Below, piece by piece: positions 1,125 through 62,505 of a DNA stretch of 64,000 bases; the stretch's first letter is position 1, and the number at the start of each line of letters is the position of its first letter. The stretch comes from a candidate division WOR-3 bacterium (lineage in GTDB: Bacteria > Hydrothermota > Hydrothermia > LBFQ01), in NCBI GenBank assembly GCA_039802605.1, contig JBDRWW010000006.1, forward strand, positions 1 to 64,000, written 5' to 3'. Under the pieces are notes generated by a model, which was not told the origin of the DNA, did not search any database, and saw only the letters and a program-made list of their open reading frames with translations. Made by a program: the position numbers and the translations under genes.

Positions 1125-1988
1125 TTAATACCACTTAAACCTTACAACCGGTAGGGTTGTATCCCTTGACCATACCGCAAAACTTCCCTCAAACACCCTT
1201 AACCTTTCCTTTGGATAACCCATCAAACGGAATATGAAGTATCCCAAGGAAGCCTCCCTACCGGTATTGCAATAAAATATGTATTGTTTTGCATTGGGAT
1301 TTACCACGGCTTTCAAAATTGTGTCCACGCTTTCCGCATTCTTTAAGACATAGAAATTGTCATTGACCTTTGTGAAGAAAAATTCAAAGGGTAAGGAAAA
1401 GGCTTGTGGAATGTGTCCAAACCTTTGATAAAACGGCTGCCCGTAAACCCCAAAGTAATATTCCGAAGGTCTAACATCAAAAATTTGATAATTTGGATCG
1501 CCTAAAACCTTTAACACAAAATTTTTATCAACTATTAGGGATGAATCGGGCTTTGCCTTAAGCCTTATTCTCGGGGATAGCCCCCTCTTTGTACTTGTTG
1601 GTAGTTTGTTTTCAACCCAAGCCTCATAACCCCCGTTTAAAACGAAAACCCTTTCAAAACCCAAGTATTCCAATACGAAAAACAACCTACCAACATTTGC
1701 GTAAAATATGGGTAGTTTCCCCGATGAGTATATTAAAATGGGATCATCTTGCCTAACCCCAAGGGATGAAATCACCTCTATAAGCGTATCTATCGGTTTC
1801 ATCTGAAAGGGAATACCATCTTCGGCTCGTAAAAACGAATTTACCGGAAAATTAACCGCACCCTCTATATGACCCTTTTCATACATTTCGGGCTCCCTAA
1901 CATCAATTATTGCCTTAAACCTTATTTTTGAGGCTTCCTTGGGTTCAAGTAGAATATTAAGAGGATATGCACCCATTATCCAAATCAT
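1125..1988 (-). CDS. Two-domain rhodanese / sulfurtransferase
   Basis: IIDVR..Y.KGHIEGAVN, VLNGG, GHIPQA, active-site YCNTG and FEGSFAVW. Confidence 0.9.
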   Translation of the reverse strand: MIWIMGAYPLNILLEPKEASKIRFKAIIDVREPEMYEKGHIEGAVNFPVNSFLRAEDGIPFQMKPIDTLIEVISSLGVRQDDPILIYSSGKLPIFYANVGRLFFVLEYLGFERVFVLNGGYEAWVENKLPTSTKRGLSPRIRLKAKPDSSLIVDKNFVLKVLGDPNYQIFDVRPSEYYFGVYGQPFYQRFGHIPQAFSLPFEFFFTKVNDNFYVLKNAESVDTILKAVVNPNAKQYIFYCNTGREASLGYFIFRLMGYPKERLRVFEGSFAVWSRDTTLPVVRFKWY

Positions 1989-2031
1989 AACCCGTATTCT
2001 AAGGTTGTATATTTTTCCAATTGTGAATTTA

Positions 2032-2043
2032 CAACCTTAGAAT
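2032..2043 (+). promoter_or_regulatory. C-N5-TAGAAT promoter for purL, back-to-back with an equivalent minus-strand promoter at 1996-2007
   Basis: CAACCT-TAGAAT on both strands, 11 and 7 nt before the respective ATGs. Confidence 0.7.
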
Positions 2044-2054
2044 GAATACCCAAC

Positions 2055-7912: not shown

Positions 7913-10090
7913 TTATGGTACAAAAACCCGCTTTGTTATAACCTTATCCCCAACCCTTATACGCGCAAAATATACACCCTTTGGAACATCTAAGGAGATG
8001 GAATATTTACCCGGTTGGACAAATCCAAGGGATTTTGTGTGTTTCCTCCTACCATCCGGAGAGTAAAGGTCAAGCCCGAGATAGGATGGACTTGAAAGGA
8101 TAACCGTTATTTCCCCACGGCTTAGATATACCTCCAACTCTTTCCTTTCCACCTTTTCCTTCACATTCACCAGACAGCGGGGAGAAACTTCTATTAAAAA
8201 GGCTTCATCGTTTGGGCTATAATAAGGGTTATACCTTATATAGGGTTGCGGGTAAGATGTTGTATCATAACCCCGGAATAAATACCCACCTACAAGTATC
8301 CTATCGGGATATACTAAGGTATATCTGGCGTAATCCTCACCAATACCCCCGATGTTTGAAACCCCATAACATGTGTTTAAATCCTTACTCAAACCCACAA
8401 TTAGTGGGTCGGTATCCCAAAAGGATGTATCCCCAGAAGTTATATTACACACCGGGCATGAACCCCAACTCGGGGGATTTGATTTTATGTTTAAGACATA
8501 TATTATGGTGTCGCCTTTTAATGCCATTGTTCGTAGGTATAACTTTTCGGTGTCGGGTGAGGATACATAGGCCATCTTGTAAAAATTCCTTAAAGATGTG
8601 TCCGCCCATATAACACCCATGTCCTTTGCCCCAAGGGTTCCGTAAACTACCCTCGGTATCCCGGTCGCAAAGGAACTTGCATCTTCCGTCCAGAAGAATA
8701 TGTACAGGTTCCCAGAACTGTCCGCCAATATACCCCTTGCATAATCACCGTAATTGCCACCAAAAATAACAGCCCTCAAAATCGTATCAAGGTTCTTATT
8801 AACCTTAACTAAGTATGCATCGTATGAAGACCTGACCCCTATTAGCGTATCAACCCTTGCGTCCCAAGAAAAAACATGGGACATTCCAAAAACATACAAA
8901 CTGTTGTTTAATAAAAGTCCTCCCCATGCCAATTCCGTATCAAATCCGCATATTAGGGATGTGGTTATGTAGTTTAAGGCGGTATCCAACTTGGTTATGA
9001 AAATATCCCCAATCTCACAGGTATCACCTCCTATTACATTCTTTGACAATCCGAATGTCGGGGAATTGTAAGTTGAACCTATGATATAAAGGTACGGAGC
9101 ATCTATTAATACCTCCCAACCATAATCGTTTTCGGCACTGCTTATAAGAACGGTTTTTATATGGACATCAAGGTTGTGGCTAAGTTTTGTCAAGAAAACA
9201 TGTATATCCCCGGCACCGGTAACACCATAAATCGTTCGTGAAGGTGCAATATCGTTGGATTTGGTATAACCGAGAACCAAAATGTTTCCGTTTGGATCCT
9301 CAGTTATGAATGCAGACCTATCCTCACTACTCCCAGATATAAGGGCCACCGACAAAACCGACATAAGATCCGGCGACAGCCTTACAACGAAAACAAGGGG
9401 ATTGGATAAAGATCCGTATATATAGTTTGGCGTTAAGAAGGAACCGTAATCGTAGGTGTGTCCAACAACATAAACATATCCGCTGTCATCCACATGAATA
9501 CCCCTTAGGAAATCCATACTTGAACTCCCTATGATAAATGTGGGGTCTATTATTAGGTCAGATGATGGGTCATAGTTTTCCACCTTGAAGGATAATGTTG
9601 AACCTTCAATTAGAGGGTTAACCTTAACTTCCCTCGCCCCCTGATAAGCCTTCAAATCCTTTATTATAAACCTTTCACCGTTTTCCGCCATTACCTCAAT
9701 TTTTCCGTTTTTACCTTTCAACTCACAACCCGCAAAGTTTAAGCGTATTTTGTTGGGATCGGCATAAGGCTTTATGTGTAGATAGAACTCAAAGGTATTA
9801 CCGGATAGGCCGTTTATTACAAAATCAACCCGGGGATATACATCCTTCAACCGTAGGGATTTAAACATTTTACCGGTGATGGTTTCGCGGGGTCCGAAAT
9901 ATGAGAACTTTCCACCCGTGGGATGTAATCCCTCCACATTACGAACCTTACCGCCTACGAATTCAAGACTTATACCCCTTATGCGCACATCACCCTTGTA
10001 TATCCTTATATCTCCGGATACATTCATCCATATGCCTTTATGCCTTATAAATACCTGCTGAAAGCTAAATCCCAAAATCGCCCAAACCAT
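7913..10090 (-). CDS. Secreted SBBP-like beta-propeller protein with N-terminal DUF7948-like domain and C-terminal sorting-like domain
   Basis: LKDVYPRVD, LKAYQG, LIIDP, DSSGNLY blades and GVYFARIRVGDKVITKRVFV tail; GGAGG RBS. Confidence 0.75.
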   Translation of the reverse strand: MVWAILGFSFQQVFIRHKGIWMNVSGDIRIYKGDVRIRGISLEFVGGKVRNVEGLHPTGGKFSYFGPRETITGKMFKSLRLKDVYPRVDFVINGLSGNTFEFYLHIKPYADPNKIRLNFAGCELKGKNGKIEVMAENGERFIIKDLKAYQGAREVKVNPLIEGSTLSFKVENYDPSSDLIIDPTFIIGSSSMDFLRGIHVDDSGYVYVVGHTYDYGSFLTPNYIYGSLSNPLVFVVRLSPDLMSVLSVALISGSSEDRSAFITEDPNGNILVLGYTKSNDIAPSRTIYGVTGAGDIHVFLTKLSHNLDVHIKTVLISSAENDYGWEVLIDAPYLYIIGSTYNSPTFGLSKNVIGGDTCEIGDIFITKLDTALNYITTSLICGFDTELAWGGLLLNNSLYVFGMSHVFSWDARVDTLIGVRSSYDAYLVKVNKNLDTILRAVIFGGNYGDYARGILADSSGNLYIFFWTEDASSFATGIPRVVYGTLGAKDMGVIWADTSLRNFYKMAYVSSPDTEKLYLRTMALKGDTIIYVLNIKSNPPSWGSCPVCNITSGDTSFWDTDPLIVGLSKDLNTCYGVSNIGGIGEDYARYTLVYPDRILVGGYLFRGYDTTSYPQPYIRYNPYYSPNDEAFLIEVSPRCLVNVKEKVERKELEVYLSRGEITVILSSPSYLGLDLYSPDGRRKHTKSLGFVQPGKYSISLDVPKGVYFARIRVGDKVITKRVFVP

Positions 10091-10108: not shown

Positions 10109-11245
10109 TCACCAATCCAAAACATTGCCATCTTTATCAACCTTTAATATAGCCGCAGTTGAAAGGTTGTCTATACATGTCGTAAAATATATCACCCCAT
10201 CATTGGATACCTTGGCATCGTATAAACCACTCGCACCCAAAGGAGACCAGTAATTCCTCAAAAGCGTTATATTCCCCTCATCGTCAAACTTCACAGCAAT
10301 TATACAATACCCAGAACCACAAGTAGCCACCTCCCCAAACGCAAAGTATTGCCCATCAGGTGTCCTTACTACCTCCTTGAAAGGCCCTCCCCATACCTCG
10401 TTATCAAACGGTTTCCTTATGCACCTATACCACTTTAAATTCCCCAAACTGTCAAGCTTTACTATTAAAGGACAATCTTCCGAAGTGTGCCTCTGTACAG
10501 CCTTCCCAACAAATACCAATCCACCATCATAAGCCTCTACTCCGGCATTCACAAAAGCCCCTATAACCGTATCAAGTATTATACCCCTACTCCAAAGAAA
10601 ATTCCCATTGCTATCAACCTTATAAACCGCAAAACTAACAGGTGCCTCGGGCTCGTATGTAGCCACATACCCAGCCCCATGCTTCGTTATGGTGGGAAAA
10701 ATCGGCTGAATGGCTTTCCTATATGTCGTGTCGCATGTTTCCCATAAAAAGTTCAAATCTGAACCCGTAAATTCATATTTCCTTATGCAGTTGTGAGGAT
10801 AAACTGTGGTTGATATTACAACATAACTTCCATCGGATAACACCTCATTACCCCCAAACCCAATATTAACAGATGAATTCCACATATTGCCGTTTAAATC
10901 TACAAACATTGCGTTTAAGGGTGTTGCTATAACAAACTTATCAACAGATACCCTGTATATACCATCAAACCCAATCGTATCCTTGGTTTTTATCCAAATA
11001 ATATTCCCCCCTCCCGATATGCGTGTTACAATGTTGTATTTGTAGTCCTTTACAGTTAGCATAATATCCCCGTTATCAGATAGTGCTATACTCGGTTTCA
11101 TACAAAATTCCTGCAATTTCACACTAACCACCTTTGTTGAATCAAAACAATAATATTGTGGGTCTGGCTCACAGGCCACCTTTCCCTTTCTGCACCCCGC
11201 AAAAACCAAGAAAAGGGCAAAAGCAAAGAATGCTAACCTTTTCAT
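10109..11245 (-). CDS. Lipoprotein, probable beta-propeller
   Basis: Lipobox FAGC; repeated K(V/L)DS.GN..W blades. Confidence 0.75.
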   Translation of the reverse strand: MKRLAFFAFALFLVFAGCRKGKVACEPDPQYYCFDSTKVVSVKLQEFCMKPSIALSDNGDIMLTVKDYKYNIVTRISGGGNIIWIKTKDTIGFDGIYRVSVDKFVIATPLNAMFVDLNGNMWNSSVNIGFGGNEVLSDGSYVVISTTVYPHNCIRKYEFTGSDLNFLWETCDTTYRKAIQPIFPTITKHGAGYVATYEPEAPVSFAVYKVDSNGNFLWSRGIILDTVIGAFVNAGVEAYDGGLVFVGKAVQRHTSEDCPLIVKLDSLGNLKWYRCIRKPFDNEVWGGPFKEVVRTPDGQYFAFGEVATCGSGYCIIAVKFDDEGNITLLRNYWSPLGASGLYDAKVSNDGVIYFTTCIDNLSTAAILKVDKDGNVLDW

Positions 11246-13479
11246 CTCTTTATAACCTTATAAACTTTATTCTTAACCACAACGAAATATATCCCGCGCT
11301 TCAAACCACCCATATCAATCGTATAGTTCCCGAATTTACCTTCCTTAACCAATCTCCCATTGGAATCGTAAACCTTAAAGTATCCGGAAGGTAGGTCAAT
11401 CTTCAAAGTGTTATGAACCAATTTTGTTTCCATTGGTCGAATACCTGTGAATATAGTCCCAAATGCCTTGTTATCATTCATACCCAAAACCTCCCTATAA
11501 ACCGAAAGTATATCCTCTTCGTCATAAGAAGGTGAAACCGTAATATACGAGACCAATGTCCTCGGTTCTTTACCATAAGTTTCAAAGAAAAAGTAATAAA
11601 CACCCCTGCGGTTGAGCCTAAGGTAAGCCTTAAATGTATCCCTAACCTTCACAGGCCTTACAACCCCGTAGCTTGTCCAAGGCCCTATGGAGTAATAAAA
11701 CCCCATAACGGAATCTGCAAATGGATGGTGTATATCTATTCTTATAATCTCACCCTCAGTATATACATGCTTGTTAAACCTTAAGTACGCGCTAACGGGA
11801 CTTAGAAAAGATAGTATTACAGGTGTTGGGAAAATACCTTCTAAATCCGCATGACCTCTTTCTTTTTCTATTTTCATAAGAGGCTGACCAGAAGATTTAT
11901 TAAATGCGGCTATATAAGTGTATCCATATTCGCGTCTGTTTAGATATACAGTATCCGCCCATAAAACCCTTAAAGCCGAAGGAGACCATATTGCAACGCT
12001 GTCAGTTAAATAAGAAGGCATTATGTATAATGTGGAATCAATTAGGGTTATGTATCCCCAACTTCTAACTTCCTTCGGGGAAGTTATGGGTATATCAAAG
12101 GGTGCATTGTAATATGTCTCTTCTGGTAGGGTATCAAGAATAGCACCTTCTATAAAAGGAAACAATGATGGATCCTCTTTTATTGCCGTGTGATCCTTTT
12201 CCCATATATCCGGATCCCCGGAGCATGTCCTTCCACCAGAGCCCGTAGGTTGGTTGGAAAATATTTTGGTTTGCAAATCAAACTGGATATCCCTGGCACT
12301 GGCATTTCCATATTCAACCACACCATCATTACACCCAGCACCCATAACATACCTTACGACAAAACATCCCGCTTGGGATTTGGCGGGAAAGGTGCCACAT
12401 TTCCACTCGGGTGTCCAGCCCATGCCAAGTCTTGCAACCTTGATATTCCCCGGTACCGTATCGGATGCAATATATCTATAATACGCCGACCTCCATGCCA
12501 AAACCCCAAAGCCTGTAAGTATGTCATAGTCCATCTGGAATCCCTCGCATACTAAGGGCACTGTCGCCTGAAATGCCAAGCACAAACTAAACAACCTGGG
12601 GTCCAGTATAAAAAGACCACAATTTAACCAACTACCACCATTACAAAAATCCGCCATGGCAGACCCATAAAAAGGCGTTCCAAGGGCCACAAAACCCATA
12701 ACATATGGATTATTCTTTAAATAAATTACACCTTCGGTTTCTAAGCCCGCCCTACTATGCGCGACTACAACTATACTCCTATTCCAAGTAGAATCATAGT
12801 TCCTGTAAATATACCTCCCCAATGAACCTATAAGGGTATCCAAAAGGTTTGTATTTGGCCAAAAAGAGGGACCTTTCCCATCGTTAAAATCGTATAAGGT
12901 CACCATGGCAACGCGGAAATATGAATTTGTCACTAAGTAATCCTTTAAACTCACCATAGAGTTGCAATCCGAACCCATACCATGAACTAATAACACGACA
13001 GGAAGATCTTTTTGCGGTGAACTGGGGGAATTCCAGAATAGTCCCAACCATTTACGATACCTGGGGGAATACCATGTCCAAATCGGATCACCGCATCTGG
13101 GATAGGGGTTTATAGGACTAGGTCCAGGGCCACTTCCTCCCCCACCCCCCGGTGGTGGCTCATCTCCTGAACCCCTTGGCTGGCAAGGCCCCAACTCGGG
13201 GACACTATCCGGATTCGCCCAGCAGCATACCCCTTGGGAATATGGTGGATTAAAGTCATAGCATCGCCCAACATGGCAAATGGGGGCTATATAGTCCATG
13301 CTGGTATCTATACAACACGGGTTTCCTATGTATCCACATATTTCTGAGTTGGGTTTAATATCCGGTGGATTGTCCTTAGGAAACATAACTCCGGGAAGGA
13401 TTAAAAACGCCAAACCTAAGACCCACGGCGTTTTCTTCCTTCTTCCTTTCCATACGTTTTCTTCCTTCTTCCTTTCCAT
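11242..13479 (-). CDS. Secreted alpha/beta-hydrolase (lipase-like) with Cys-rich N-domain and C-terminal sorting-like domain
   Basis: LVHG oxyanion motif, AHSRAG nucleophile elbow, LGTPFYGS, NDGVV and YDSNGRLV...GIYFVVV tail. Confidence 0.75.
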   Translation of the reverse strand: MERKKEENVWKGRRKKTPWVLGLAFLILPGVMFPKDNPPDIKPNSEICGYIGNPCCIDTSMDYIAPICHVGRCYDFNPPYSQGVCCWANPDSVPELGPCQPRGSGDEPPPGGGGGSGPGPSPINPYPRCGDPIWTWYSPRYRKWLGLFWNSPSSPQKDLPVVLLVHGMGSDCNSMVSLKDYLVTNSYFRVAMVTLYDFNDGKGPSFWPNTNLLDTLIGSLGRYIYRNYDSTWNRSIVVVAHSRAGLETEGVIYLKNNPYVMGFVALGTPFYGSAMADFCNGGSWLNCGLFILDPRLFSLCLAFQATVPLVCEGFQMDYDILTGFGVLAWRSAYYRYIASDTVPGNIKVARLGMGWTPEWKCGTFPAKSQAGCFVVRYVMGAGCNDGVVEYGNASARDIQFDLQTKIFSNQPTGSGGRTCSGDPDIWEKDHTAIKEDPSLFPFIEGAILDTLPEETYYNAPFDIPITSPKEVRSWGYITLIDSTLYIMPSYLTDSVAIWSPSALRVLWADTVYLNRREYGYTYIAAFNKSSGQPLMKIEKERGHADLEGIFPTPVILSFLSPVSAYLRFNKHVYTEGEIIRIDIHHPFADSVMGFYYSIGPWTSYGVVRPVKVRDTFKAYLRLNRRGVYYFFFETYGKEPRTLVSYITVSPSYDEEDILSVYREVLGMNDNKAFGTIFTGIRPMETKLVHNTLKIDLPSGYFKVYDSNGRLVKEGKFGNYTIDMGGLKRGIYFVVVKNKVYKVIKR

Positions 13480-14522: not shown

Positions 14523-14526
14523 CCTT

Positions 14527-15690: not shown

Positions 15691-16801
15691 TCTCTCTCCC
15701 TTATGTAATAGGCTACATTTAACCTTTTAATTCCGAGTGCGGGTGTTATCGTTAAGATAATAACGAGAAGTATCAAAAACAATGCGGGATGTATAAAGTT
15801 GTGCGGGTCTAAAAGTGCGGTTATTATGGGTTGTAATGTTAAACCCTCATAAGATGTTTGGGATACGAAGTTGGATATATCTATTGGGTTGAATTTTAGT
15901 AAGGCCGTTATGGCCAAGGAGATGATTAAGCCTATTATTAAACTGAAAAACCCCATATACAGGTTTTCCAAGAACAACAAAGCATACAAAAACCTCTTCT
16001 TTACCCCTATCGCCATTAACATTGCAAATTCTTTCCTCCTTTCGTAAAAAGAAATCAAAAAGGTGTTAAATATTATCAAACCCACCACAAAATAGAAAAG
16101 GACATCGTAAATTATTCCAAACGCATCCCACATCCTCATATAAAACCACAACACAGGCATATAACAAGGCTTTTTAAGGGATTATCCAATCTTATTACAA
16201 CCTCATGGAATGTGGAATCCGGAAGGTTTAAAAATTCCCTAACATTTTCAAAACTCGTAAAAACAGTCCTCATATCCACAATTCTATCACCACTTGAAAA
16301 TATGCCATTTATAACCCCTCCTATGGTTGAGAACGAACCGTTTAGGGAGTTTCCTATAACATACAAGGAATCACCTACGGAACATTCAAGGATTTTTGCC
16401 AATCCTTTACCAATAACAAAACCATCATCGCCTTTAAAACTTTTTATTAAAGGTTCCCTTTCAAAATTTACGCCAAGGACTTCACCCGAATATATGTTCT
16501 TTCCGCAAACGAAAAGTCCAAACCCCCTAACCCTATAAGAGGTGTTAAACCCTGAAAAGTTGGGCAAATCTCCGGTTTTAAAGAACTTGTAAATACTTCT
16601 ATCCTTTGAGTAACCCTTTTTGGTTATCGTTATATGACCCAAATAGTTGTCCGTGGTGGCCTTTATACTCATTAAGAAAAGGGCTTCGTATATGTCTATC
16701 GTTATAACCAAAAAAGAATAACCCATAACCATGACCGAAATAGTTAGAACCGTCCTACGCTTATTTCGCCAAAGGTTCCTAAAAGCGAGTTTCCATATCA
16801 T
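15687..16801 (-). pseudogene. ABC permease (LolC/E / FtsX-like) split by a frameshift near 16140-16170
   Basis: N-half (KLAFRNLWRNKRRT, 16136-16801) and C-half (ERRKEFAMLMAIG, 15687-16160) are in different frames. Confidence 0.8.
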
Positions 16802-17445
16802 TTTTTCTCTCCCAAACTTTCGGGTGAGAACATAATGTCTGGAATGTTTATATCAAATTTTAGGGTTTTGTATAAAACTTCCGTATATTCCCCGCTTTTG
16901 TCCAAGGGTTCAACCGTTATTCTCATAGGGATATTCCTTTCCGCGAGGGTTTTGTGGTCGTAAAATTTTATAATCCGTAAGGGCTTTAATGTTTTATCGT
17001 AAAACATAATGCTGTAAATCGTTAAGGTTTTGGGGTTTATACGGTATTCTATCTTGCCGTAAATACCCTTGGCTTTTTTCTTGGGTTTCATTTCTATTAT
17101 AGCGGTATCCCCGACCTCATCCGATAGTGAAATATCATAACTTTCTTCTATATCCCCCTCCGCTACTAAATCCTCAAATGTTAGATGGGTTCCCATCCAA
17201 GTGTCAAACATCATTATCTCGGGTAGTTTAATAACCCTGTTTATTGATGGGATATAAAGGTATATGTTTTTGCCACTCTTCAACATAACACCCTTTGAAA
17301 AAACTTCCACCTCCATGTTTTTTGTATATTCCGATGTTTTTGTGGTTATACTTATCAGCGCGTAGGCACTTTTTGAAGTGTATAAACTTTCCAACTCTTT
17401 TATAACTTTTACGGGATCTAAATCCGAGATGAAAAGGATAAACAT
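16798..17445 (-). CDS. Outer-membrane lipoprotein-sorting protein (LolA-like)
   Basis: YLYIPSINRVIKL...WMGTHLTFEDL and FDINIPDIMFS motifs; in operon with Lol-type ABC genes. Confidence 0.8.
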   Translation of the reverse strand: MFILFISDLDPVKVIKELESLYTSKSAYALISITTKTSEYTKNMEVEVFSKGVMLKSGKNIYLYIPSINRVIKLPEIMMFDTWMGTHLTFEDLVAEGDIEESYDISLSDEVGDTAIIEMKPKKKAKGIYGKIEYRINPKTLTIYSIMFYDKTLKPLRIIKFYDHKTLAERNIPMRITVEPLDKSGEYTEVLYKTLKFDINIPDIMFSPESLGEKK

Positions 17446-17457
17446 AAGCCTTATATT

Positions 17458-21410: not shown

Positions 21411-22202
21411 CTATGCCACCCAAAGGGGTATTATCGCCAATACGGTTGTAAGTTTTAAAACCTTCCTGAGAGCCGAATATTTCCGCCAATATACCAACCA
21501 ACCAAAAGTCCATAGTGGTCCATTTACCAATAAAAAAACGCCTATGCCATAATAAAGGGAATATCCAGTAAAAACGGGCAAAATGTCCAAAACCGTTAAA
21601 ACCATTATCCCAACGAATATTAGATGTTGGATTTTACTTTCGGCCAAGACATGCGCTATGGTTTTCCTTTGAATTTCATCGCCTTTTTTGTCTTCCAAAC
21701 TCTTTACAATCTCCCTTAACAATTGTAGGTATGCGCCTAAGAAGGCGGCCGGTATTACCCTAAGAATGTTCTCTGGGTTTGCCCCGTACAAAAATGCCAA
21801 AAATACAACAAAGGAAACCGATAAATTTCCCAAAAGCGGCACGGACTTTAATTCCAAATTATATAGTATTCCAATAAACATTGCCAAAGAACCTATCATT
21901 AAGGCCCAATAGGAGTGCTTTGCGGAGAAATAAAGGCTTAGGATCAAGCACACAACGGAAAGCATAAAGGCATCCAGAGGGGTGGCTTCACCGGTAATAA
22001 GGGGTTTGTTTGGGTGATTAACCCTATCAACCTCTATATCCGATATATCGTTGGTTATGTTGATAAAGGAGGATATGAAAAAGGCTCCCAAAACCAAATA
22101 AAACACCTTAAAAAAATCCCCGTATGTTATCTTTGTTGATACTATTACCACCAATGCCGCTATTAATCCGTTAAGCGGACGGGCTAACCTTATTTGTCCC
22201 AT
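21411..22202 (-). CDS. UbiA-family prenyltransferase, DGGGP-synthase-like
   Basis: [24 protein letters not shown]...LGN and [13 protein letters not shown] motifs. Confidence 0.8.
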
Positions 22203-22959
22203 ATATCCTTATAAACATCACTAACCCCAAGATCATCAAAACTATTGCTATCCACTGGTTAAATGTTAAAGGCAATCCAAAAGGGTAAGCATTCGGTTCG
22301 TAATGCCGGGTAAAATCCACCAAAAACCTAACAAAAGGGGTGAATATTAACGCCAAGGAACCCACCAAACCGGCTTTTTTAACCCCAAATTTCCGCAATA
22401 ATATCAAATATACCAAAAATAGTATTGCATCCCCTACGGATTCGTATATTTGGGATGGATGTACGGGAACCCCTCCGAATTCAATATAGGGCTCGCTACC
22501 TTCCGGAAAGATTACTCCAAAGGGGAGACTTGTGGGTTTTCCATAACAACATCCGTTAAAGAAACACCCCCACCTACCTATTGCTATACCGAGCGTTATC
22601 CCTGGAATTGCCGCGTCCAAAGTAGCCCAAAAGTTCCATTTCTCCTTATGTATAAACCATAAAACCGGTATAACGCCAAAAAGTATCCCGTAAAAGGTCA
22701 TACCACCTTTCCATATGGCAAAAATCTCCGTAGGGTTTAGACTATAATAATCCCAATGCTGTATAACGAAAAACACCCTAGCCCCTACAACGCCGAAAAT
22801 CATCGCCCATATCGCCACATCCCAAACCCTGTCCTTTGAAATTCCAAATTTACTTAAATGATTAGATGCAAACCAGACCCCAGCCAAAAATCCCAACAGA
22901 ACCAAAACCCCATATGTCCTAATCTCAATACCACCTATTTCAAAAAGAATGGGATGCAT
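22171..22959 (-). CDS. lgt: Prolipoprotein diacylglyceryl transferase
   Basis: GAR, IWKGGMTFYG, GRWGCFFNGCCYG and HPSQIYE motifs. Confidence 0.96.
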   Translation of the reverse strand: MHPILFEIGGIEIRTYGVLVLLGFLAGVWFASNHLSKFGISKDRVWDVAIWAMIFGVVGARVFFVIQHWDYYSLNPTEIFAIWKGGMTFYGILFGVIPVLWFIHKEKWNFWATLDAAIPGITLGIAIGRWGCFFNGCCYGKPTSLPFGVIFPEGSEPYIEFGGVPVHPSQIYESVGDAILFLVYLILLRKFGVKKAGLVGSLALIFTPFVRFLVDFTRHYEPNAYPFGLPLTFNQWIAIVLMILGLVMFIRIYGTNKVSPSA

Positions 22960-25449: not shown

Positions 25450-25602
25450 ATTTGGCACTTCCACATATTAAACCCTACAAACGGCAGGCTTGTAAATGGT
25501 TTTGATGTTTTGGCAAAAGAGGGGTTTGAGTTTGAATATGCTTCCACCCTTAGGCAATAATCCCCTTTACAAAAAACTTTTCAATATTAAAATGCTTTTC
25601 TT

Positions 25603-27258
25603 GTGGCAATAATAGCATTAATAACATCCTTGCCGCTGGAAGGCATAACCCCAAAGCCCGACAAAAGGGCTGGGGAGATATACGAGGAAGGTATAAGTAT
25701 GCTCTTCACACAGAATGTAGGGCAAATACCAAACCACGAGGTAGTTTTCTACACAATACACCCAAGCGTTGTGTATGTTCTAAGGAACGGGAAAATAAAC
25801 ATAAACGGGATAACAATAGACTTTGGTAAGGAGCCGAGGTTTATAACCGGAGATATGGAACAGATAACGAGGGTATCATACTTTGGGAACAACAAGAGCA
25901 TAAGCGGAATAGCCACATACAAGAGGGTTGTGTTAAAAGAGGTATATCCGAATGTGGATGTTATACTAACGGCAGATGGAAAAGGGGTAATAGAGTTCCA
26001 GTATATAGTAAAGCCTGGTGGCAATGTTAAGGACATAAGGGTTAAAGTTGAAGGGGAGTTGAAGGTTAAGGAAGATGGGATATATGTGGTTGAGGGTGAA
26101 AAAGAACTTGTGAAGTTAAGCGAGATAAAGGCATATCAAGGTGCGGATGAGGTTGAGGTAAGGGCGAAGGTTGAGGGTAAATACCTATCCTTTGAAGTTG
26201 GAAGGTATGACAAAAAAGAAACCCTTGTTATAGACCCATTTATATCTATAACATTTTTAAGTGATGGTGATGTTGCCCATTCCTTGGCGATAGATGGTAG
26301 TGGAAATGTTTTTGTTGCGGGATATAGTAGTAATTCCTCAAGCTTTGCGCCTAGTAGAAATTTCTTCGGTACTACCGGTTATTATTATGTCTTTGTGAGC
26401 AAGTTGAGTAATGATTTAAGCACACATATCGCTACCGCTATACTGGCTTCAAGTGGTGATGATTATGCCTATTCCGTAGCGATAGATGGAAGTGGAAATG
26501 TTTTTGTTGCGGGATATACTATGAATCCCTCAGACTTTGCACCGAGTAGAAATATCTTCGGTACTACTAATTGGGCCGATGTCTTTGTAAGCAAGTTGAG
26601 TAATGATTTAAGCGCACATATCGCTACCGCCATACTGGCTTCAAGTGGGGATGATTATGCCTATTCCTTAGCGATAGATAACAGTGGAAATGTTTTTGTT
26701 GCTGGATGGACTTTGAATTCCTCAGACTTTGCACCTAGTAGAAATGTCTTCGGTACTACTGGTTTGTGGGATGTCTTTGTAAGCAAGTTTAGTAATGATT
26801 TAAGCACACATATCGCTACCGCTATACTGACTTCAAGTGGTGATGATTATGCCCGTTCCTTAGCGATAGATATAAGTGGAAATGTTTTTGTTGTGGGATA
26901 TACTTATAATTCCTCAGACTTTGCACCGAGTAGAAATGTCTTCGGTACTACTGGTTCATGGGATGTCTTTGTGAGCAAGTTGAGTAATGATTTAAGAAAA
27001 CATATTGCTACCGCTATACTGACTTCAAGTGATGGTGATTATGCCTATTCCTTAGCGATAGATGGAAGTGGCAATGTTTTTGTTGCTGGGGCAACTGGTA
27101 ATTCCTCAGACTTTGCACCGAGTAGAAATGTCTTCGGTACCATACGGAAGGAAATGGTACTGGGTTGCTTGGCTGCCTTTGCACCAATTATAAATGTCTT
27201 CAGTACTATCGGTTCTCCTGATGCCTTTGTTATTAGGTTATCCAACGAATTGAAATAA
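25603..27258 (+). CDS. SBBP-repeat beta-propeller protein with DUF7948-like N-domain
   Basis: FTQNVGQ, LKEVYPNVD, IKAYQG and LVIDP, then 64-aa repeats (AIDGSGNVFVAG). Confidence 0.85.
   Translation: MAIIALITSLPLEGITPKPDKRAGEIYEEGISMLFTQNVGQIPNHEVVFYTIHPSVVYVLRNGKININGITIDFGKEPRFITGDMEQITRVSYFGNNKSISGIATYKRVVLKEVYPNVDVILTADGKGVIEFQYIVKPGGNVKDIRVKVEGELKVKEDGIYVVEGEKELVKLSEIKAYQGADEVEVRAKVEGKYLSFEVGRYDKKETLVIDPFISITFLSDGDVAHSLAIDGSGNVFVAGYSSNSSSFAPSRNFFGTTGYYYVFVSKLSNDLSTHIATAILASSGDDYAYSVAIDGSGNVFVAGYTMNPSDFAPSRNIFGTTNWADVFVSKLSNDLSAHIATAILASSGDDYAYSLAIDNSGNVFVAGWTLNSSDFAPSRNVFGTTGLWDVFVSKFSNDLSTHIATAILTSSGDDYARSLAIDISGNVFVVGYTYNSSDFAPSRNVFGTTGSWDVFVSKLSNDLRKHIATAILTSSDGDYAYSLAIDGSGNVFVAGATGNSSDFAPSRNVFGTIRKEMVLGCLAAFAPIINVFSTIGSPDAFVIRLSNELK
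26269..27140 (+). repeat. About 4.5 intragenic tandem repeats of 192 bp
   Basis: Units start at 26269, 26461, 26653, 26845 and 27037 and are highly similar at DNA level. Confidence 0.95.
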
Positions 27259-41939: not shown

Positions 41940-44231
41940 TCATTTCACCACCACAAACTTGCCCGTAGCTATTCCCCTTTCGGTCATCAATACTACAACA
42001 TACACACCCTCTTCCAAATCGCCAACATTCAAGGAATATTCCCATAAACCGGCGTTTTTTGTTCCCTTTACTGGTATTTCCCTTACAAGCGTACCAAAGG
42101 ATGTATATATCCTTAAAACCGGTTCGGTGGGGAACATAGCCTTTACCCTTAAAACCACCTTTCTATTTTTGGATTTTGAAACCGGATTTGGATATATCCT
42201 CTCAAAAAAGAGTTCCCTTTTATCCGTTTTAACCTCCAAGGGTTCGGAAAAGACCAAAGCGGCGGCATCCACAAGGCCATAACCGGTACAATAGTTGGGT
42301 TTAAAAGGGATATCCTCTAAGGGTTTTGCGGTTTCAAGGAGTTTGTTCCTGAGTTTTTCAAGTGTCCATGAGGGATGGGCTTCAAGGGCTAAGGCCAAAA
42401 CCCCGGCTGTTATGGGTGCCGCATAGGATGTTCCGGATGCGATTACGGTTCTATTAGAATCGTCCGCCGCCACGGCCTCAAAGGGTGCAACCACTTCGGG
42501 TTTAACCCTCCCATCCGAAGACGGACCACAGGCCGAATTGCTTGAAAGTACAACCTTCCCAGATGTGCTATCGTATATAACCCCTCCAACGGAAATTATG
42601 TCAAAAGCATCCGCGGGGGCGGTTAGCGTTGTATCCCCGACATTTGGGTCTACGCTTCTTGAAGAAACATTACCTATGGATATTACCGGCAATATGCCCC
42701 TTTTTAAGGCCTCAGATGTAGCCCTTGAAGATATTGCACTTTTCCCATCCATCATATCCTTTGTATATCCCAAATCAGAACCGTATCCCAAACTTGCGTT
42801 GATTATTTTAACCCCCTTTCTTGCCGCCCATTCCAAAGCGGCAACATAAAAATCTTCCTCCAACCTGTTCTCCCAATTTGTGGTGGTATCACTCCTGCTA
42901 ACCTTTTCGGTTTTCGCAAGGTAATATGTTGCACCCGGAGATATACCTATTAATGTCCCCTCAATATACCCCGCCATTACGGATAAAACCCTCGTGCCGT
43001 GATACCTACCGGTTCCGTACTTTGGAACCTCTGCCATTGTATCTCCCCTTTCCCTGAAAACGAGTTTGCCGTTTATAAACTTTGGTTTATCGCAAAATGT
43101 CCAACCCGTTCTCCGGATTTCCGAGCGGCTACTAACGGACATTATTGATATGTAATCCTCCCTTGGAACCGCAATGCTATCCCCGGATAAAGCGAAGTTT
43201 TCTAAAAACTTTACGGATGTTATGAAATTCCCATTAACGAATAAAGAATCGTTCCTTATGTATGCAAGCCTCCCGTTATCAATAACCGGATAAAATCCGA
43301 GGTTTTCAAACCTGAAAGATGAACCCTTAAAAACAAAGATGCTATCCCCATCGGAAAAGGCCAAACTGTCCCCATTCAAATACATTCCGCCAAATCCCCG
43401 GGAATATTTTGAGGCCGCGCAGTTTAAGGATGTTGAGAATTCGCAAAGTTTAACGCTATCGCCCGTATAAATGCCCAGTACAAAGTTTCCCGCAAATGTA
43501 TCGATGACCGCCGTATAACCCGGTGTAAGGTTTATAACCCTTTCAAATGTGTCCGTATATATCGCCCCGAGTTTTAAAAAGCCATAAGACGACCAAACCA
43601 AATAAACCGTATCGTTCCTCAAAGTTAAATCCGGATTTATCTCAAATCCCAAGGACAACCTCTTCAAACTCCAAGAGGTATTATACTTGGCCAGATATAG
43701 GTCCCACCTGTTTATGTTTGTCCCCGCAATGTCCCCCTCATCTATTCCCGAAAATACACAGTATACTTCCGCACCCCTATATATACAATCGTATGAGTGG
43801 ATGTAAAAGGCGTTATCGGTTGGTGTTGGCAAAGAACTCCCGTCAAAGTTTAACCTATCCCCACTGTTAAAGTCCATCTGGCCGCCAACTATTACCCCCC
43901 TAAGGGAATTGTGGTTCAGATCAAAACCCGTATCAAATATTCCAACCTTTACGCCGTTTCCTGTTAATCCCAATTTGTGGAGCGTATCCGCCCTTACGGT
44001 TTTCACCTGAAATTCCGATTCCCCATATTTATATTCCCTCACCCTTTCTTCCTTGTGGAGTTTAAACATTAAAACCTTACCCTTTGGAAAGCCTTTTAGT
44101 TTGGCATTATCGGGAATGAAAAAGGATCTATATCCCGTCCAGTAGGATTTTACCCTTTGGTATCCCCCGAAAACCTCCACATAATTAACGGAATTTGCAT
44201 TTACACTGAGCCAATATATGGGAAAACTCAT
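41940..44231 (-). CDS. S8 subtilisin-like serine peptidase with large insertion and C-terminal sorting-like domain
   Basis: GIFDTG, HGT, SIGN and SGTSYAAP catalytic motifs; YPNP...GVYVVVL...KFVVVK tail. Confidence 0.9.
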   Translation of the reverse strand: MSFPIYWLSVNANSVNYVEVFGGYQRVKSYWTGYRSFFIPDNAKLKGFPKGKVLMFKLHKEERVREYKYGESEFQVKTVRADTLHKLGLTGNGVKVGIFDTGFDLNHNSLRGVIVGGQMDFNSGDRLNFDGSSLPTPTDNAFYIHSYDCIYRGAEVYCVFSGIDEGDIAGTNINRWDLYLAKYNTSWSLKRLSLGFEINPDLTLRNDTVYLVWSSYGFLKLGAIYTDTFERVINLTPGYTAVIDTFAGNFVLGIYTGDSVKLCEFSTSLNCAASKYSRGFGGMYLNGDSLAFSDGDSIFVFKGSSFRFENLGFYPVIDNGRLAYIRNDSLFVNGNFITSVKFLENFALSGDSIAVPREDYISIMSVSSRSEIRRTGWTFCDKPKFINGKLVFRERGDTMAEVPKYGTGRYHGTRVLSVMAGYIEGTLIGISPGATYYLAKTEKVSRSDTTTNWENRLEEDFYVAALEWAARKGVKIINASLGYGSDLGYTKDMMDGKSAISSRATSEALKRGILPVISIGNVSSRSVDPNVGDTTLTAPADAFDIISVGGVIYDSTSGKVVLSSNSACGPSSDGRVKPEVVAPFEAVAADDSNRTVIASGTSYAAPITAGVLALALEAHPSWTLEKLRNKLLETAKPLEDIPFKPNYCTGYGLVDAAALVFSEPLEVKTDKRELFFERIYPNPVSKSKNRKVVLRVKAMFPTEPVLRIYTSFGTLVREIPVKGTKNAGLWEYSLNVGDLEEGVYVVVLMTERGIATGKFVVVK

Positions 44232-45598: not shown

Positions 45599-47233
45599 TT
45601 ATTTATTTTCTTCCGCAAACTTATGCGCAACGCAATCGCACTCTATTATAGGCTTAAATGTGCTTTGAACGGTTATAGTTAGGTTTTCACTACCACAACC
45701 CGAGTTCGTAAATGTTGTCGTAACCGTCATGGTGGCGGAGAATGGTTTAAAAGACAAAATCGTTTCATTTCCACCCCTGAAAACAAGCGGATCGTTTATA
45801 TACACCGGTACATCCGAAAACCTAACCCTATCTCCTCCGACAACCCTCATACCCAATAGGTCAAATATTGTATTCTCACTGCCCACGCTACTTACCATTA
45901 CACCTCCGTTTATGTAATATCTGAGCGTTACATCCTGGGTTTTACCCACGGAGTATGCGGCCATAAATACGGTATCAATTGAAGGGTCCTTTAGGTTCCA
46001 CGGATCCAAAACCCCGCAGTCGCTATATTTTGCTGATACAACCTTACCCTTATCCGTTTGCCCAATTTTCTTGTTTTTTAGAAAGTTATCCGAAACGAAC
46101 AAAACATCCTCTCCTGATAATCCGAATGTTTGGGCAAATTTGGAATTAAAGTCTATGAAATTCCTACAAGCAAACTTTGAATGCAAGATGTAATTCAATT
46201 CGTACTTAACATTGCTGTGCTCCGATGATACGCTTACCGTTGAGGAAACGTTCCAAGCATAAGGTGCCTTAACCTTAAAGGCCGTTTTGCCCGATGACAA
46301 TGTGGGTTTTACACCCGGTAAAATCTTGTTATCCCTTGGACATACCGCCGCAACCTCAAAGGATACATCTATCGGGTTTTGCTGGTTGAAAACATTGCAA
46401 TCCGGGGGTTGGTATAGAACAACGGGGTTTTCTCCCCTTATAATGTACCAACCATCGCCAATATTTTCGCCACTCGTTATCCTCCCCTTTGAGTTTCCGC
46501 TTAAACGAACGGCCACCCCGGCCTTTTTATCGAGTATATCAAACAAACTTTTTCCCTCGGAGTTATTCATTGATGAAAACCTTATGGCCACAAACCTATC
46601 TTGAGAAATGTCGGCCTCATCAACCACTTGAACCGAATACATTATCATGGTTTCCTTTGTGGCTATCCTCGTAAGGATTGATCCCATTTTTTCCGCTAAT
46701 TTGTTCGTTATCAAAACTATTGATTGCAACACATCCTTTACGGCCGTTGATGGTATCCTGTAAGAAAATGTCTCATACACGGTTTCGCTTTCAAGGTTTA
46801 TAAGCCAAATCTTACCCACCAAGCCATATGAATCTTCACCTATAAGTATATCAACCAGATAGGGAACGCTCCCATATGCCGTATCGTCTTTGTGTAAGGC
46901 CGCGGTTAGCGAATCGTTTATGAGTTTTGAAAATGTTCCAAAAGGGGTTTCCGTCCAACCCGAACCCACTATTTTTATAGAATTACCATCAACACCCGTG
47001 AAATACTCTTGCGCCTTTTTTATTATCACGGGTAAGTATGTGGTTAAATTTCCGCGAAAGTTTTGGCTATACTTACCTGCGGGGTTTACCGCTATTCTCG
47101 CCTTTAAATACACTTCCGGAGGAGAGCATACCGAGTAAGGTAGTTTTTTGGTTGTGGTGCTCTCCTTACTTTTTTGGGCGTATGTGGGGGATACGAGAAA
47201 AGGCAATAAAATAAAAGGAAAAACCCGTTTCAT
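45599..47233 (-). CDS. Hypothetical secreted protein
   Basis: Canonical signal peptide MKRVFPFILLPFLVSPTYA-Q; 544 aa. Confidence 0.75.
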   Translation of the reverse strand: MKRVFPFILLPFLVSPTYAQKSKESTTTKKLPYSVCSPPEVYLKARIAVNPAGKYSQNFRGNLTTYLPVIIKKAQEYFTGVDGNSIKIVGSGWTETPFGTFSKLINDSLTAALHKDDTAYGSVPYLVDILIGEDSYGLVGKIWLINLESETVYETFSYRIPSTAVKDVLQSIVLITNKLAEKMGSILTRIATKETMIMYSVQVVDEADISQDRFVAIRFSSMNNSEGKSLFDILDKKAGVAVRLSGNSKGRITSGENIGDGWYIIRGENPVVLYQPPDCNVFNQQNPIDVSFEVAAVCPRDNKILPGVKPTLSSGKTAFKVKAPYAWNVSSTVSVSSEHSNVKYELNYILHSKFACRNFIDFNSKFAQTFGLSGEDVLFVSDNFLKNKKIGQTDKGKVVSAKYSDCGVLDPWNLKDPSIDTVFMAAYSVGKTQDVTLRYYINGGVMVSSVGSENTIFDLLGMRVVGGDRVRFSDVPVYINDPLVFRGGNETILSFKPFSATMTVTTTFTNSGCGSENLTITVQSTFKPIIECDCVAHKFAEENK

Positions 47234-47299
47234 TGCGGGAATTATAAGGCTGAAAGATTTTATAAAATTTAAAACAAAACGGGCATATAATCCCCGCTT

Positions 47300-53017: not shown

Positions 53018-53051
53018 AAGAGGGTATTATAAAAAGGTTTGTTTCACAAAA

Positions 53052-58862: not shown

Positions 58863-58909
58863 GGTTGAGGGTATTATAAGGGTGAAATTTAACTACCGTA
58901 GAATTTTCT

Positions 58910-60468: not shown

Positions 60469-60476
60469 TTCTAATT

Positions 60477-60579
60477 TCCTCCGGGCCTTCCCTCTTTTGT
60501 TAGCCCCACTCAGTTTAACCTCATAGGGTAGAGTTGATGAGTAAAGTTCCGCGGAGGCCGAAGTTTATGACCCGAAGGA
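60477..60579 (-). ncRNA. Candidate structured non-coding RNA, family unknown
   Basis: Nested helices whose G-U pairs form only on the minus strand (see findings). Confidence 0.4.
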
Positions 60580-60627
60580 TGGACATATTCAATACTTCTT
60601 TTTTTCGCCCTTATAATATACGGTAGC

Positions 60628-61125
60628 ATGTTTTGGTTAATTGCGTTTGGCAAAGGCGCCGCTATAACCGTTCCGGTTACCCCGGCTCCGGATAAAAAGC
60701 CGGGTGAGTGGAGGACATATAACTCTACAATAAGTCCCGCAAGTGAATCGCCGAAAATAGAAGGTATAAGGTGGGGTAGTCCTGTGATAATAAACCTTTC
60801 TGGGAAAGGGGAAGATCCAGCATCCGCGACTTTAACCGGAAGGGGTGAAGACCTCAAAGGTTTTTCAAACATAACCGTATATATCAAGGGCAATGGTAAT
60901 GTAAAGTTTAACCTGTATTACACATACGACGGTAAATATATGATGTTATCAAGGGATATAACCGCCAGTGAAAGTTGGCAGGAGATAGTGTTTAACCTTT
61001 CGGAAGGCTTAGAGTTTGGACTCGGTATGCCCAACCGTCCCGATGTTATAATGCCTTATAAACTCGTAATTTCTTCCGAGGGCAACGCCGTTATCAACTT
61101 TGGTGGTGCATACATAAGGAGGTAA
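60628..61125 (+). CDS. Hypothetical protein, possible CBM11/CIA30-like carbohydrate-binding fold
   Basis: DLKGFSNITVYIKGNG and WQEIVFNL patterns. Confidence 0.6.
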   Translation: MFWLIAFGKGAAITVPVTPAPDKKPGEWRTYNSTISPASESPKIEGIRWGSPVIINLSGKGEDPASATLTGRGEDLKGFSNITVYIKGNGNVKFNLYYTYDGKYMMLSRDITASESWQEIVFNLSEGLEFGLGMPNRPDVIMPYKLVISSEGNAVINFGGAYIRR

Positions 61126-61128
61126 GAA

Positions 61129-62505
61129 ATGTTAATACTTCTATTAACCGATGCGCCATTTGGCCCAAATGTTAAGGTTTCAAACTGGGATATTAGCACG
61201 GGATTGGATCAGCTTGAAGTATCCCTTGCCAAGAGCTCTTCTTGGATAGCGGCTCATTGGATAGATACGGATTGGTCCGGATGGTTTTCCGCCAACGATT
61301 TTGCTATAAGTTCCGATGGTGGCTCTACATGGAAGTTCGTATGGTATATCAGACCCCCTGACACCGTAAACTGTTGGATAGGGGATCCATCCGTCGCTTC
61401 CGATCCCACAAATCCGGACAAGTTCTACGCAGTGGGTATGATATATTGCAACCCTTCAGATCCCAAAGGTGAGGTTTATTTCTGTAAAAACACCGGAAGG
61501 CCTGATACGATTACCAGTTGGAGTTGTTCCATACTCCCCCCTAACGACGGCTGGGCATACTTTAAGGATAAACCTTGGATAATATCACTGGGTGGGGGTG
61601 TTCTCCTTGTAAATTACACTACCGACAAGTACGGAAGTTATGAAATAGATATAGCCCGGAGTACGAATGACGGTTCAACTTGGAATACAATAAGGCTATC
61701 TGGGGTACAATCAACGGTTGCATACTTTTACAGGGATGGTTCAACTGTTTATCTATCCCAAAACAACTTTAACTCTTGGCCTAATATAGCCATAAGGGTT
61801 AGGAAATCAACGGATAACGGAGCTACTTGGACATCCTTAGGGGATGCGGTCAGTTTTAGTCCGGGCTCTTCAACATATTGTCCAAACTTTAACAGACCAG
61901 CAAAGATACACAACCATATAACCGCCCAAGGCAACAATATAGCCGTTGCCTTTATAAAACCCAACGGTTCTTATTGTAATGTAGGTGTGGCATATTCAAC
62001 GAATGGGGGTTCTACTTGGAACAACAAATATGTGGCACAGGCATCAATCGATCAGGTTCTCCCAATGATTGCGAGTTCTTCCCCTTCAAATCTATATGTT
62101 ATGTGGCAGGAAAAGGTTGGGAGTCAATGGGCCACAAAGTGGGCGTCTTCAAGCAACTGGGCAACAACCTTCTCCTCGCCGGGTAGGGTATCCGATCATA
62201 ACTATACATTTAACCAAAATCCGGCCGGCCATGACTACAACGGTTTCCTATACGATGCGGGCAATCTCTTTGCCATATGGGCAAACGACTATTACGGAGA
62301 TGATGCGGGAGCTGTTTATTTTACTAGAACCGCATATACATCCTTAGAAGAGGCTTTGGATAATGGGATTGCCGGGGAATTTGATATATATACCGTTGAT
62401 GGAAGGGTTGTTGCAAGAAATGTCAAAAACTTAAAAGAAATGCACCTGCCAAATGGTGTATATTTCTTAAAGACGGGAACGCGGGTTATAAAGGTTGTAA
62501 GATAA
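61129..62505 (+). CDS. BNR/Asp-box (sialidase-fold) protein with C-terminal sorting-like domain
   Basis: SSDGGSTW, STNDGSTW, STDNGATW, STNGGSTW and DKPWI; IYTVDGRVV...GVYFLK tail. Confidence 0.85.
   Translation: MLILLLTDAPFGPNVKVSNWDISTGLDQLEVSLAKSSSWIAAHWIDTDWSGWFSANDFAISSDGGSTWKFVWYIRPPDTVNCWIGDPSVASDPTNPDKFYAVGMIYCNPSDPKGEVYFCKNTGRPDTITSWSCSILPPNDGWAYFKDKPWIISLGGGVLLVNYTTDKYGSYEIDIARSTNDGSTWNTIRLSGVQSTVAYFYRDGSTVYLSQNNFNSWPNIAIRVRKSTDNGATWTSLGDAVSFSPGSSTYCPNFNRPAKIHNHITAQGNNIAVAFIKPNGSYCNVGVAYSTNGGSTWNNKYVAQASIDQVLPMIASSSPSNLYVMWQEKVGSQWATKWASSSNWATTFSSPGRVSDHNYTFNQNPAGHDYNGFLYDAGNLFAIWANDYYGDDAGAVYFTRTAYTSLEEALDNGIAGEFDIYTVDGRVVARNVKNLKEMHLPNGVYFLKTGTRVIKVVR

Follow-up and report, generated by a model that had tools for sequence, protein, structure and literature searches.

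Ultra-short N-terminal leaders, consisting of a methionine followed by a few hydrophobic residues and devoid of a positively charged n-region, are found on envelope proteins encoded in a 64,000-nucleotide stretch of a candidate division WOR-3 genome (positions 1-64000 of its contig C6; hereafter the window). The trait extends far beyond the window, throughout the genome, and is phylum-wide and graded, with the source genome as an extreme case. In the reading that we favor, with a probability of about 0.6, these leaders would be truncated Sec/signal peptidase I (SPI) signals lacking the n-region and cut, for the most part, by an ordinary LepB. The source genome (1.65 Mb, 41% GC, 90% complete) encodes a BamA whose closest named homologue, with 38% identity, is labelled candidate division WOR-3, and the sequencing runs containing the window are nearly all hot-spring metagenomes.

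Occurrence of the short leaders in the window and in the genome

A preliminary description of the window had listed nine such N-termini, all of which are encoded where it had placed them (Table 1), the one at 25603 having GTG as its start codon. Its premise that these proteins must be exported holds for the TonB-dependent receptor (53017), the LolA-like protein (17445) and the three proteins (10090, 44231 and 61129) bearing a C-terminal sorting domain (CTD) of the type IX secretion system (T9SS), whose export is obligatory; for 25603, 31924 and 1988 export is only plausible and 60628 belongs to no family. The normal signals ascribed to 47233 and to the lipoproteins of the window are indeed classical.

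The genes of the genome were called with a purpose-written caller and the CTDs of the window were searched for with the TIGR04183 profile. A loose leader filter (250 of 1,598 genes) was discarded because it let in many Rossmann-type starts, and the strict pattern, which imposes hydrophobicity at positions 2-7, defines a set of 123 genes of 1,556, with 117 of them outside the window (some tallies were made on 114). Among 1,080 gene starts that belong neither to membrane proteins nor to classical signals, 123 (11.4%) have a leader of this kind, compared with 47 (1.1%) of 4,389 internal methionines, and such leaders are therefore not due to chance; a recount that took just each frame's first start codon again yielded 123 of 1,556, not necessarily the same genes.

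TIGR04183 matches 46 frames in the genome, six being fragments and 40 full-length; by eye, 33 of the latter have a short leader (Met plus 4-9 uncharged hydrophobic residues), 6 a classical signal and one no start, and an automatic rule biased towards classical signals assigns 25 as short, 8 as classical and one as long without Lys or Arg, leaving 6 unassigned. One 654-residue CTD frame (contig C4:107600-109550, minus strand) lacks ATG, GTG and TTG throughout its first 45 codons and begins with ATA directly after a stop; an ATA start or a pseudogene are both possible.

Pfam searches with the 117 strict-set proteins encoded outside the window identified 8 cytoplasmic enzymes and 63 proteins of the envelope or plausibly so, the ambiguous ones being rhodaneses, thioredoxins, tetratricopeptide repeat proteins and domains of unknown function. 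The cargo comprises BamA and two further Omp85 proteins, two TolC, TonB receptors, SurA, LolA and an OmpA-family protein, the Cu/Zn superoxide dismutase SodC, a dihaem cytochrome c, NosD and PCuAC, as well as amidases, M23 peptidases and a lytic transglycosylase. NCBIfam searches with the 46 proteins without a Pfam match added SprA (a 560-residue piece, below the cut-off) and two PorV-family proteins, one of them above the cut-off. The claim that a second, minimal export signal without an n-region operates in this lineage finds good support at the level of sequence, and the signal is far more widespread than the window alone would suggest. A short leader (MFWIILG) is also present on a second YidD-like protein (contig C9:26196-26537, minus strand), which is odd for a member of a family presumed to function on the cytoplasmic side.

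Anatomy of the leaders and the presumed cleavage site

Sec/SPI signal peptides are about 18-30 residues long. In the strict set the number of residues preceding the first polar one is most often 7-8 (60/123), with a range of 5-13. Positions 2-5, where hydrophobicity is imposed by the filter, are occupied by Ile, Leu, Val, Phe or Met, with Trp at position 3 in 24% of cases, and the small residues seen at positions 6-7 are a feature independent of the filter. The first polar residue is Gln in 32 of the 123 leaders, the background being 5.8%, and of 26 of the genome's classical signals, hand-picked and judged by eye, 13 likewise carry Gln at +1. These classical signals mostly end with [LVI]-x-[AGS], and many short leaders share the motif [LIV]-x-[ASG]/Q (the slash marks the presumed cleavage site); the 32 Q-anchored short leaders have Leu, Ile or Val at -3 in 23 cases, and in 20 their -1 residue is small.

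When leaders are selected by a filter that is anchored on this motif, sets no length condition and bars Lys and Arg from the last five residues, the Q-anchored leaders turn out to be bimodal: 27 have 6-9 residues, none with Lys or Arg, 18 have 15-23 residues, 17 of them with Lys or Arg, and five lie between. Past the leader, the first ten residues are net acidic (-0.69 vs +0.08).

None of the short leaders has an h-region long enough to form a membrane-spanning helix. The twin-arginine motif of Tat substrates is not found, the leaders being without Arg, though TatA and TatC are present, and a lipobox Cys at +1 is not a feature of the group either, Cys occurring at positions 6-12 in 5 of 114 short-leader proteins and in none of the nine of the window. 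The five early-Cys proteins (e.g., C7:1977, MIIILS-C, and C7:74883, MILAVYWFSG-C) may be lipoproteins without an n-region. Lipoprotein-like signals of the genome retain Lys or Arg and are nevertheless compact, with 12-13 residues preceding the Cys in 25 of 70.

Conservation among relatives

BamA was found in all the genomes searched, 28 from the class of the source genome and 30 from outside it, and 51 BamA N-termini, that of the source genome included, were aligned with starts chosen by eye, leaving aside nine loci that were mis-picked, split, duplicate or without a clearly visible start. This comparison, which the preliminary description had recommended, reveals short starts common to orthologues across families; in one relative (G032) a TTG start gives an 8-residue leader. 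The conserved strand of POTRA1 begins at residue 8-9 in short BamA proteins (MWLFLTA/Q, MIIILFF/Q, MIFFLLS/L) and at residue 17-21 in classical ones, the distance from the POTRA1 Gln to the conserved Gly being equal in short (MWLFLTA/Q) and classical (..SLYS/Q) orthologues. Similarly, in a pair of paralogues the Met of the short leader aligns with residue 14 of the classical signal. In both alignments the short leaders directly precede the mature domain, in register with the cleaved proteins.

Within the class, BamA leaders have 7-8 residues in four families, 11-14 in five, sometimes with a single Lys, and ~15 in one. Twelve close orthologues have identities of 0.25 in the leader vs 0.50 in the mature part, and nonetheless the leader has seven residues in 9 of them, the -1 residue is Ser, Ala, Gly or Thr in 11 and the -3 residue Leu or Ile in 11; such constancy of the length and of a small -1 residue, in the face of a changing sequence, suggests that a cleavage site is under selection. 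As to CTD proteins, an automatic rule applied to 15 relatives detects short leaders in 12 genomes, from 1/12 up to 5/9, and none in three (0/17, 0/12 and 0/5), these counts referring to selected stretches that hold part of each CTD set and including a few wrong calls.

A homologue of the LolA-like protein in relative G146 (34% identity) begins with MIIFLFS/LD. Homologues of the receptor starting at 53017 begin with MFWIDT and MVLIDT; among 116 more distant ones (leaving out 20 later-loaded members of the cluster) 95 have classical signals, two pass the short filter and 19 do neither. The structure model of the receptor (pLDDT 73.6, pTM 0.80) has a complete plug and a barrel of ~22 strands, with PirA and BtuB as the best fold matches and low confidence for residues 1-13. 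Its N-terminus could on paper be a 23-residue signal cut at VSSA/D, but this possibility was rejected because homologues carry Glu or Arg at that point and the stretch aligns with the TonB box and the plug. The receptor is very compact: almost nothing separates the TonB box from the plug, and the last strand is followed by a short, non-aromatic tail.

A proposed truncated Sec signal

The favored reading draws on the positions of the starts, the hydrophobic and uncharged make-up of the leaders, their register with the mature domains, the -3/-1/+1 motif shared with classical signals and the presence of SecAYEG-DF, YidC and LepB without a signal recognition particle (SRP). The leader would probably be a truncated classical signal and not a separate pathway: Met plus 5-8 hydrophobic residues would take the place that the h-region's C-terminal half and the c-region have in classical orthologues, SecA would engage the unfolded preprotein post-translationally through the leader and through hydrophobic patches of the mature domain, SecYEG would translocate it and LepB would remove the leader in most cases, some leaders, such as MFWI-DT, being probably left on.

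Seven residues span ~10 Å as a helix and ~23 Å when extended, the bilayer core measuring ~30 Å, and signal peptidase binds about seven residues at the outer face of the membrane. Since seven residues are too short for a bilayer-spanning helix, a head-first passage is favored, in which the uncharged N-terminus would cross the channel and settle in the outer leaflet, where LepB would bind it. Provided that the rest of the reading is correct, we give this geometry slightly less than an even chance, and an N-in loop under strain, at a lateral gate that is thinned, appears still more doubtful. A head-first passage would explain the absence of Lys and Arg from leaders of 7-9 residues and also the retention of a membrane-spanning signal by lipoproteins, for which Lgt requires it. 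A distinct mode of Sec targeting, with an obligatorily uncharged leader of 6-9 residues entering head-first without an N-in hairpin, held in the outer leaflet and cut by LepB, seems to us unlikely; if it existed, it would serve essential outer-membrane machines in an SRP-less class, beside classical signals in the same cell.

Several observations weigh against the idea of a truncated, LepB-cut signal. Twelve of the 32 Q-anchored leaders have a large residue (Phe, Leu, Val or Pro) at -1, including the genome's own BamA (MLLGILVL/Q), and the receptor at 53017, the shortest and weakest case, has no canonical cleavage site after MFWI. The hydrophobicity of positions 2-7 is set by the strict filter itself, and the absence of charge is really probed only at positions 2-4 of 23 leaders of 7-9 residues. 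Of the 117 strict-set proteins searched, 46 are without a Pfam match, and no change accounting for the tolerance of short leaders was found in SecA, SecY or LepB. Finally, no match to the glutaminyl cyclase family PF05096 was found in the genome, which is 90% complete, and Gln at +1 consequently carries less weight than it does in Bacteroidetes; PF04389 has two matches, by eye an M20-type peptidase in one case and in the other a 551-residue protein that also weakly matches DegP.

Translocon and signal peptidase

Searches with E. coli queries identified SecA, SecY, SecD, SecF, YidC, LepB, trigger factor, deformylase, Fmt, Map and Tat in the genome and failed to find YajC, Ffh and FtsY; SecE is encoded in the window and SecG elsewhere. 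Loss of deformylase or of SecG can be dismissed as an explanation, both being present. The preliminary description took the short leaders to imply unusual SecA, SecY or signal peptidase, a corollary that the sequences do not bear out. LepB is an ordinary enzyme with a single transmembrane segment (TM) and catalytic Ser and Lys, and nothing in the sequence of SecA tracks the short leaders, ten class-diagnostic columns having no evident link to them. The C-terminal Zn motif of SecA (contig C3:24679-27615) is missing in the source genome and in 9 of 11 class members, usually with a basic tail; as a cause this loss was rejected, since two short-leader members of the class keep the motif and G075, whose BamA is classical, lacks it.

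SecY bears on a rival explanation, namely that the stub is a vestigial or uncleaved tag, kept or trimmed non-specifically, and that signals in the mature domains drive export through a permissive, prl-like translocon. Mature domains do bear SecA-binding signals and prl strains secrete signal-less proteins, according to PMC5412566; known suppressor alleles of SecY are I278N, L407R and I408N. In accordance with such an explanation, Arg replaces the residue equivalent to E. coli S405, adjoining the prlA sites L407 and I408, in 11/11 class genomes as opposed to 0/19 others, the SecY of the source genome has I187A, and both the non-canonical -1 residues and the four-residue MFWI would be accommodated. 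Yet I278, L407 and I408 are intact in the source SecY, with none of the three prl-type substitutions, and R405, albeit class-diagnostic, is not needed, because short BamA leaders occur without it, in seven non-class genomes of the SecY set. Furthermore, the leader length and small -1 residue are conserved despite sequence turnover, and a retained hydrophobic tag would be expected to tether the soluble LolA and SurA. We therefore regard the uncleaved tag as improbable. R405 may do no more than pair with D197 or E202, both conserved in the class; the class-diagnostic residues of SecY (contig C2:107320-108651) are E51, E202, K340 and R405, plus D197 in TM5, and a new salt bridge near the plug is possible.

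Loss of the SRP

The class-wide loss of Ffh, FtsY and 4.5S RNA is real: matches to SRP54 are weak (E >= 9.8e-7) or absent in all 37 other class genomes and strong in 95 of 113 non-class genomes, and 4.5S RNA is detected in 0/46 class genomes, in 4/4 SRP-positive relatives and not in the SRP-less G060. At least one separate loss of the SRP occurred elsewhere in the phylum (G045, G060, G075), and relatives G008 and G028 have divergent SRP54 matches (E about 1e-41 to 1e-46).

If SRP loss and the short leaders belonged to the same rewiring, the latter could be read by a dedicated, lineage-specific factor or route, YidC-assisted or relying on a chaperone that replaces the SRP. The two traits are uncoupled in both directions. 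Eight of 25 aligned non-class BamA proteins are short (~7-11 residues, no basic residue) and all eight genomes are SRP-positive, the seven SRP-less non-class genomes all have classical BamA signals, and in G058, which belongs to the class and lacks the SRP, most CTD signals are classical (10/12); SRP loss is thus not the cause of the short leaders. In a SecA+SecY FastTree of 31 genomes rooted on E. coli, two clades hold the short BamA leaders, and SRP loss maps to two further ones with which the overlap is only partial; the deep nodes are weak, and one origin with reversals is possible. No candidate for a dedicated factor was identified, no search aimed at one having been made, and we give this explanation little credence.

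Start sites and the upstream promoter box

That the starts are mis-called, and that near-cognate codons upstream, frameshifting or stop readthrough supply a normal signal, is very improbable. In the window, the in-frame stop upstream is immediately adjacent (0 codons) to 31924 and lies 1 codon from 61129, 3 from 53017 (the TAA previously noted 9 nt ahead of its ATG), 4 from 17445 and 25603, 6 from 10090, 9 from 44231, 16 from 1988 and 19 from 60628. The strong ribosome-binding sites reported at 10090 and 61129 correspond to Shine-Dalgarno (SD) matches of 9 and 8 nt, and 44231 has one of 6 nt. The starts at 53017, 17445, 25603, 60628 and 1988 are preceded, 7-10 nt upstream, by a C-N5-TAnAAT box. 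Of the 187 genes whose first 45 codons offer a single candidate start, 58 are preceded by TAnnAT at a distance of 6-10 nt, ~5 being expected from 7,229 internal ATGs, and a conserved C sits six bases ahead of it; overall the motif, without an evident -35 element, lies 6-10 nt before about one third of the start codons. The same -10 box precedes the tRNA gene at 62572 and is therefore a promoter; located directly before start codons, it would make many mRNAs leaderless. A leaderless mRNA is not a requirement for a short leader, as SD-led genes also have short leaders and the leaderless 47233 has a classical signal.

At the level of the genome, 50 of the 123 strict-set genes have an in-frame stop within six codons upstream (TAA 27, TGA 12, TAG 11), and with stops of all three kinds no single recoding would rescue longer starts. 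For 86 of the 123 no basic residue can be obtained from any upstream in-frame start, near-cognate codons included, and in 31 of 114 the leader would stay within 12 residues even with reading from the codon next to the upstream stop, so that a recoded stop, a frameshift or a near-cognate start fails as a general explanation. The remaining 37 could gain a basic residue in frame, mostly from a near-cognate codon, 45 of the 123 could do so from another frame under a lenient rule, and an ATA 36 nt upstream of 60628 would yield a 20-residue, uncharged leader. Nevertheless such rescues mostly traverse the promoter and, by eye, almost never lengthen the hydrophobic run, those available for 17445, 1988 and 60628 using a codon upstream of, inside or right after the -10 box; moreover, contigs from the runs of two other studies cover the starts of 53017, 60628 and 61129 without substitution or indel, and a contig from an RNA library, not by itself proof of transcription, covers that of 61129.

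Least tenable of all is the view that the proteins are cytoplasmic or non-functional relics, for even though 8 of the 71 annotated members of the strict set are enzymes of the cytoplasm whose first strand is hydrophobic and export of 60628, 1988, 31924 and 25603 is at best plausible, BamA, SprA, LolA, SurA and TolC are full-length, short-leader BamA is conserved across families and a cultured member of the same phylogenetic cluster is described in PMC12285271 as having inner and outer membranes.

Comparison with known systems

Like the Sec/SPI signal with its n-, h- and c-regions, as presented in PMC9360617, the leaders are N-terminal, hydrophobic, poorly conserved and abut the mature domain; they also share with it the same cargo families and the presence of SecAYEG-DF and LepB. 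Their -1 residue is small in 20 of the 32 Q-anchored leaders and in 11 of 12 BamA orthologues, the other 12 Q-anchored leaders being non-canonical at this position. Unlike it, they have no positively charged n-region, number 6-9 residues, too few for a membrane-spanning helix, and usually have Leu or Ile at -3, as do the classical signals of this genome. The leader would appear to work as a Sec/SPI signal and yet lacks two of the defining features of that family. The Q-rule of Bacteroidetes, as outlined in PMC5837995, resembles the enrichment of Gln right after the presumed cleavage site of both short and classical signals, but here Gln is rarer in the short leaders (32/123), no glutaminyl cyclase was detected and the Bacteroidetes signals are full length. 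Export through Sec with little signal information is also seen with prl-type SecY (PMC5412566), but that is a matter of laboratory mutants, whose alleles I278N, L407R and I408N are absent here, and a conserved leader is kept. As in Leptospira, Dehalococcoides and SAR86, Ffh, FtsY and SRP RNA are all missing from the class; the portion of PMC4758666 at hand reports no ultra-short signals in those bacteria, and across the phylum examined here SRP loss and short leaders are uncoupled. Within the literature searched, which left out most subscription journals, no description of such short leaders was found, and the word "signal" does not occur in the main text of PMC12285271.

Features of the window

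The coordinates of the proteins with short leaders, of the internal controls and of the associated elements are collected in Table 1. The segment 62572-63963 comprises a tRNA gene, a frame that by eye resembles rpmG, secE and a NusG frame of unusual length (344 residues from a TTG) in which the NusG domain starts only at residue 176. The ABC permease gene beside the LolA-like gene (15687-16801, minus strand) is split into two overlapping frames, its counterpart in G146 being a single gene of 403 codons. At 5444-7290 (plus strand) an N6/N4 DNA methylase is followed by a 305-residue protein of no family, the two being probably a restriction-modification pair.

Table 1. Short-leader proteins, control proteins and related elements of the window (slash, presumed end of the leader or signal)
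Feature	Position	Strand	Remarks
Two-domain rhodanese	1125..1988	-	MIWIMGA/Y; -10 box 1996-2001; export plausible only
SBBP/DUF7948 propeller protein with T9SS CTD	7913..10090	-	MVWAILGFSF/Q; 9-nt SD match
Internal control, CTD protein	11242..13479	-	signal with long basic n-region
LolA-like protein	16798..17445	-	MFILFIS/D; PF17131; TAG 4 codons upstream
-10 box TAGAAT	17455-17460	-	ahead of the 17445 start
lgt (lipoprotein pathway)	22171..22959	-	PF01790; lipoprotein substrates retain basic n-regions
-10 box	25588-25593	+	ahead of the 25603 GTG
SBBP/DUF7948 protein	25603..27258	+	GTG start; MAIIALITS; no CTD match; export plausible
LVIVD-repeat protein	31924..32859	+	MITFLVF/Q; start overlaps gapA stop; in-frame TAG directly upstream
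S8 subtilase with T9SS CTD	41940..44231	-	MSFPIYWLSV/N; 6-nt SD match
Internal control	45599..47233	-	classical 19-residue signal MKRVFPFILLPFLVSPTYA/Q
-10 box	47241-47246		further example of C-N5-TAnAAT
TonB-dependent receptor, BtuB-like, 533 residues	51416..53017	-	MFWI, then TonB-box-like DTVMAIS; plug domain match
-10 box TATAAT	53026..53031	-	8 nt before the 53017 ATG; mRNA probably leaderless
Protein without known family	60628..61125	+	MFWLIAFG/K; -10 box 60612-60617
BNR/sortilin-like propeller	61129..62505	+	MLILLLT/D; weak T9SS CTD (E 3.1e-4, just under cut-off); 8-nt SD match
-10 box	62554-62559		further example of C-N5-TAnAAT
secE	62813..63049	+	PF00584, E 9.4e-11

Implications

By textbook rule a signal peptide is tripartite and inserts into SecY as a loop, and the minimum signal needed by Sec is a question studied mostly through mutants. 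Here a natural proteome would present seven-residue leaders on about 100 proteins, BamA and SprA among them, beside classical signals, a secretome likely to escape predictors that look for an n-region together with a long h-region. As to the minimum itself, the graded series offered by the relatives, with leaders of 7, 8, 11-12 and 16-20 residues on the same protein, together with the existence of a cultured strain of the same cluster, would make it directly testable.

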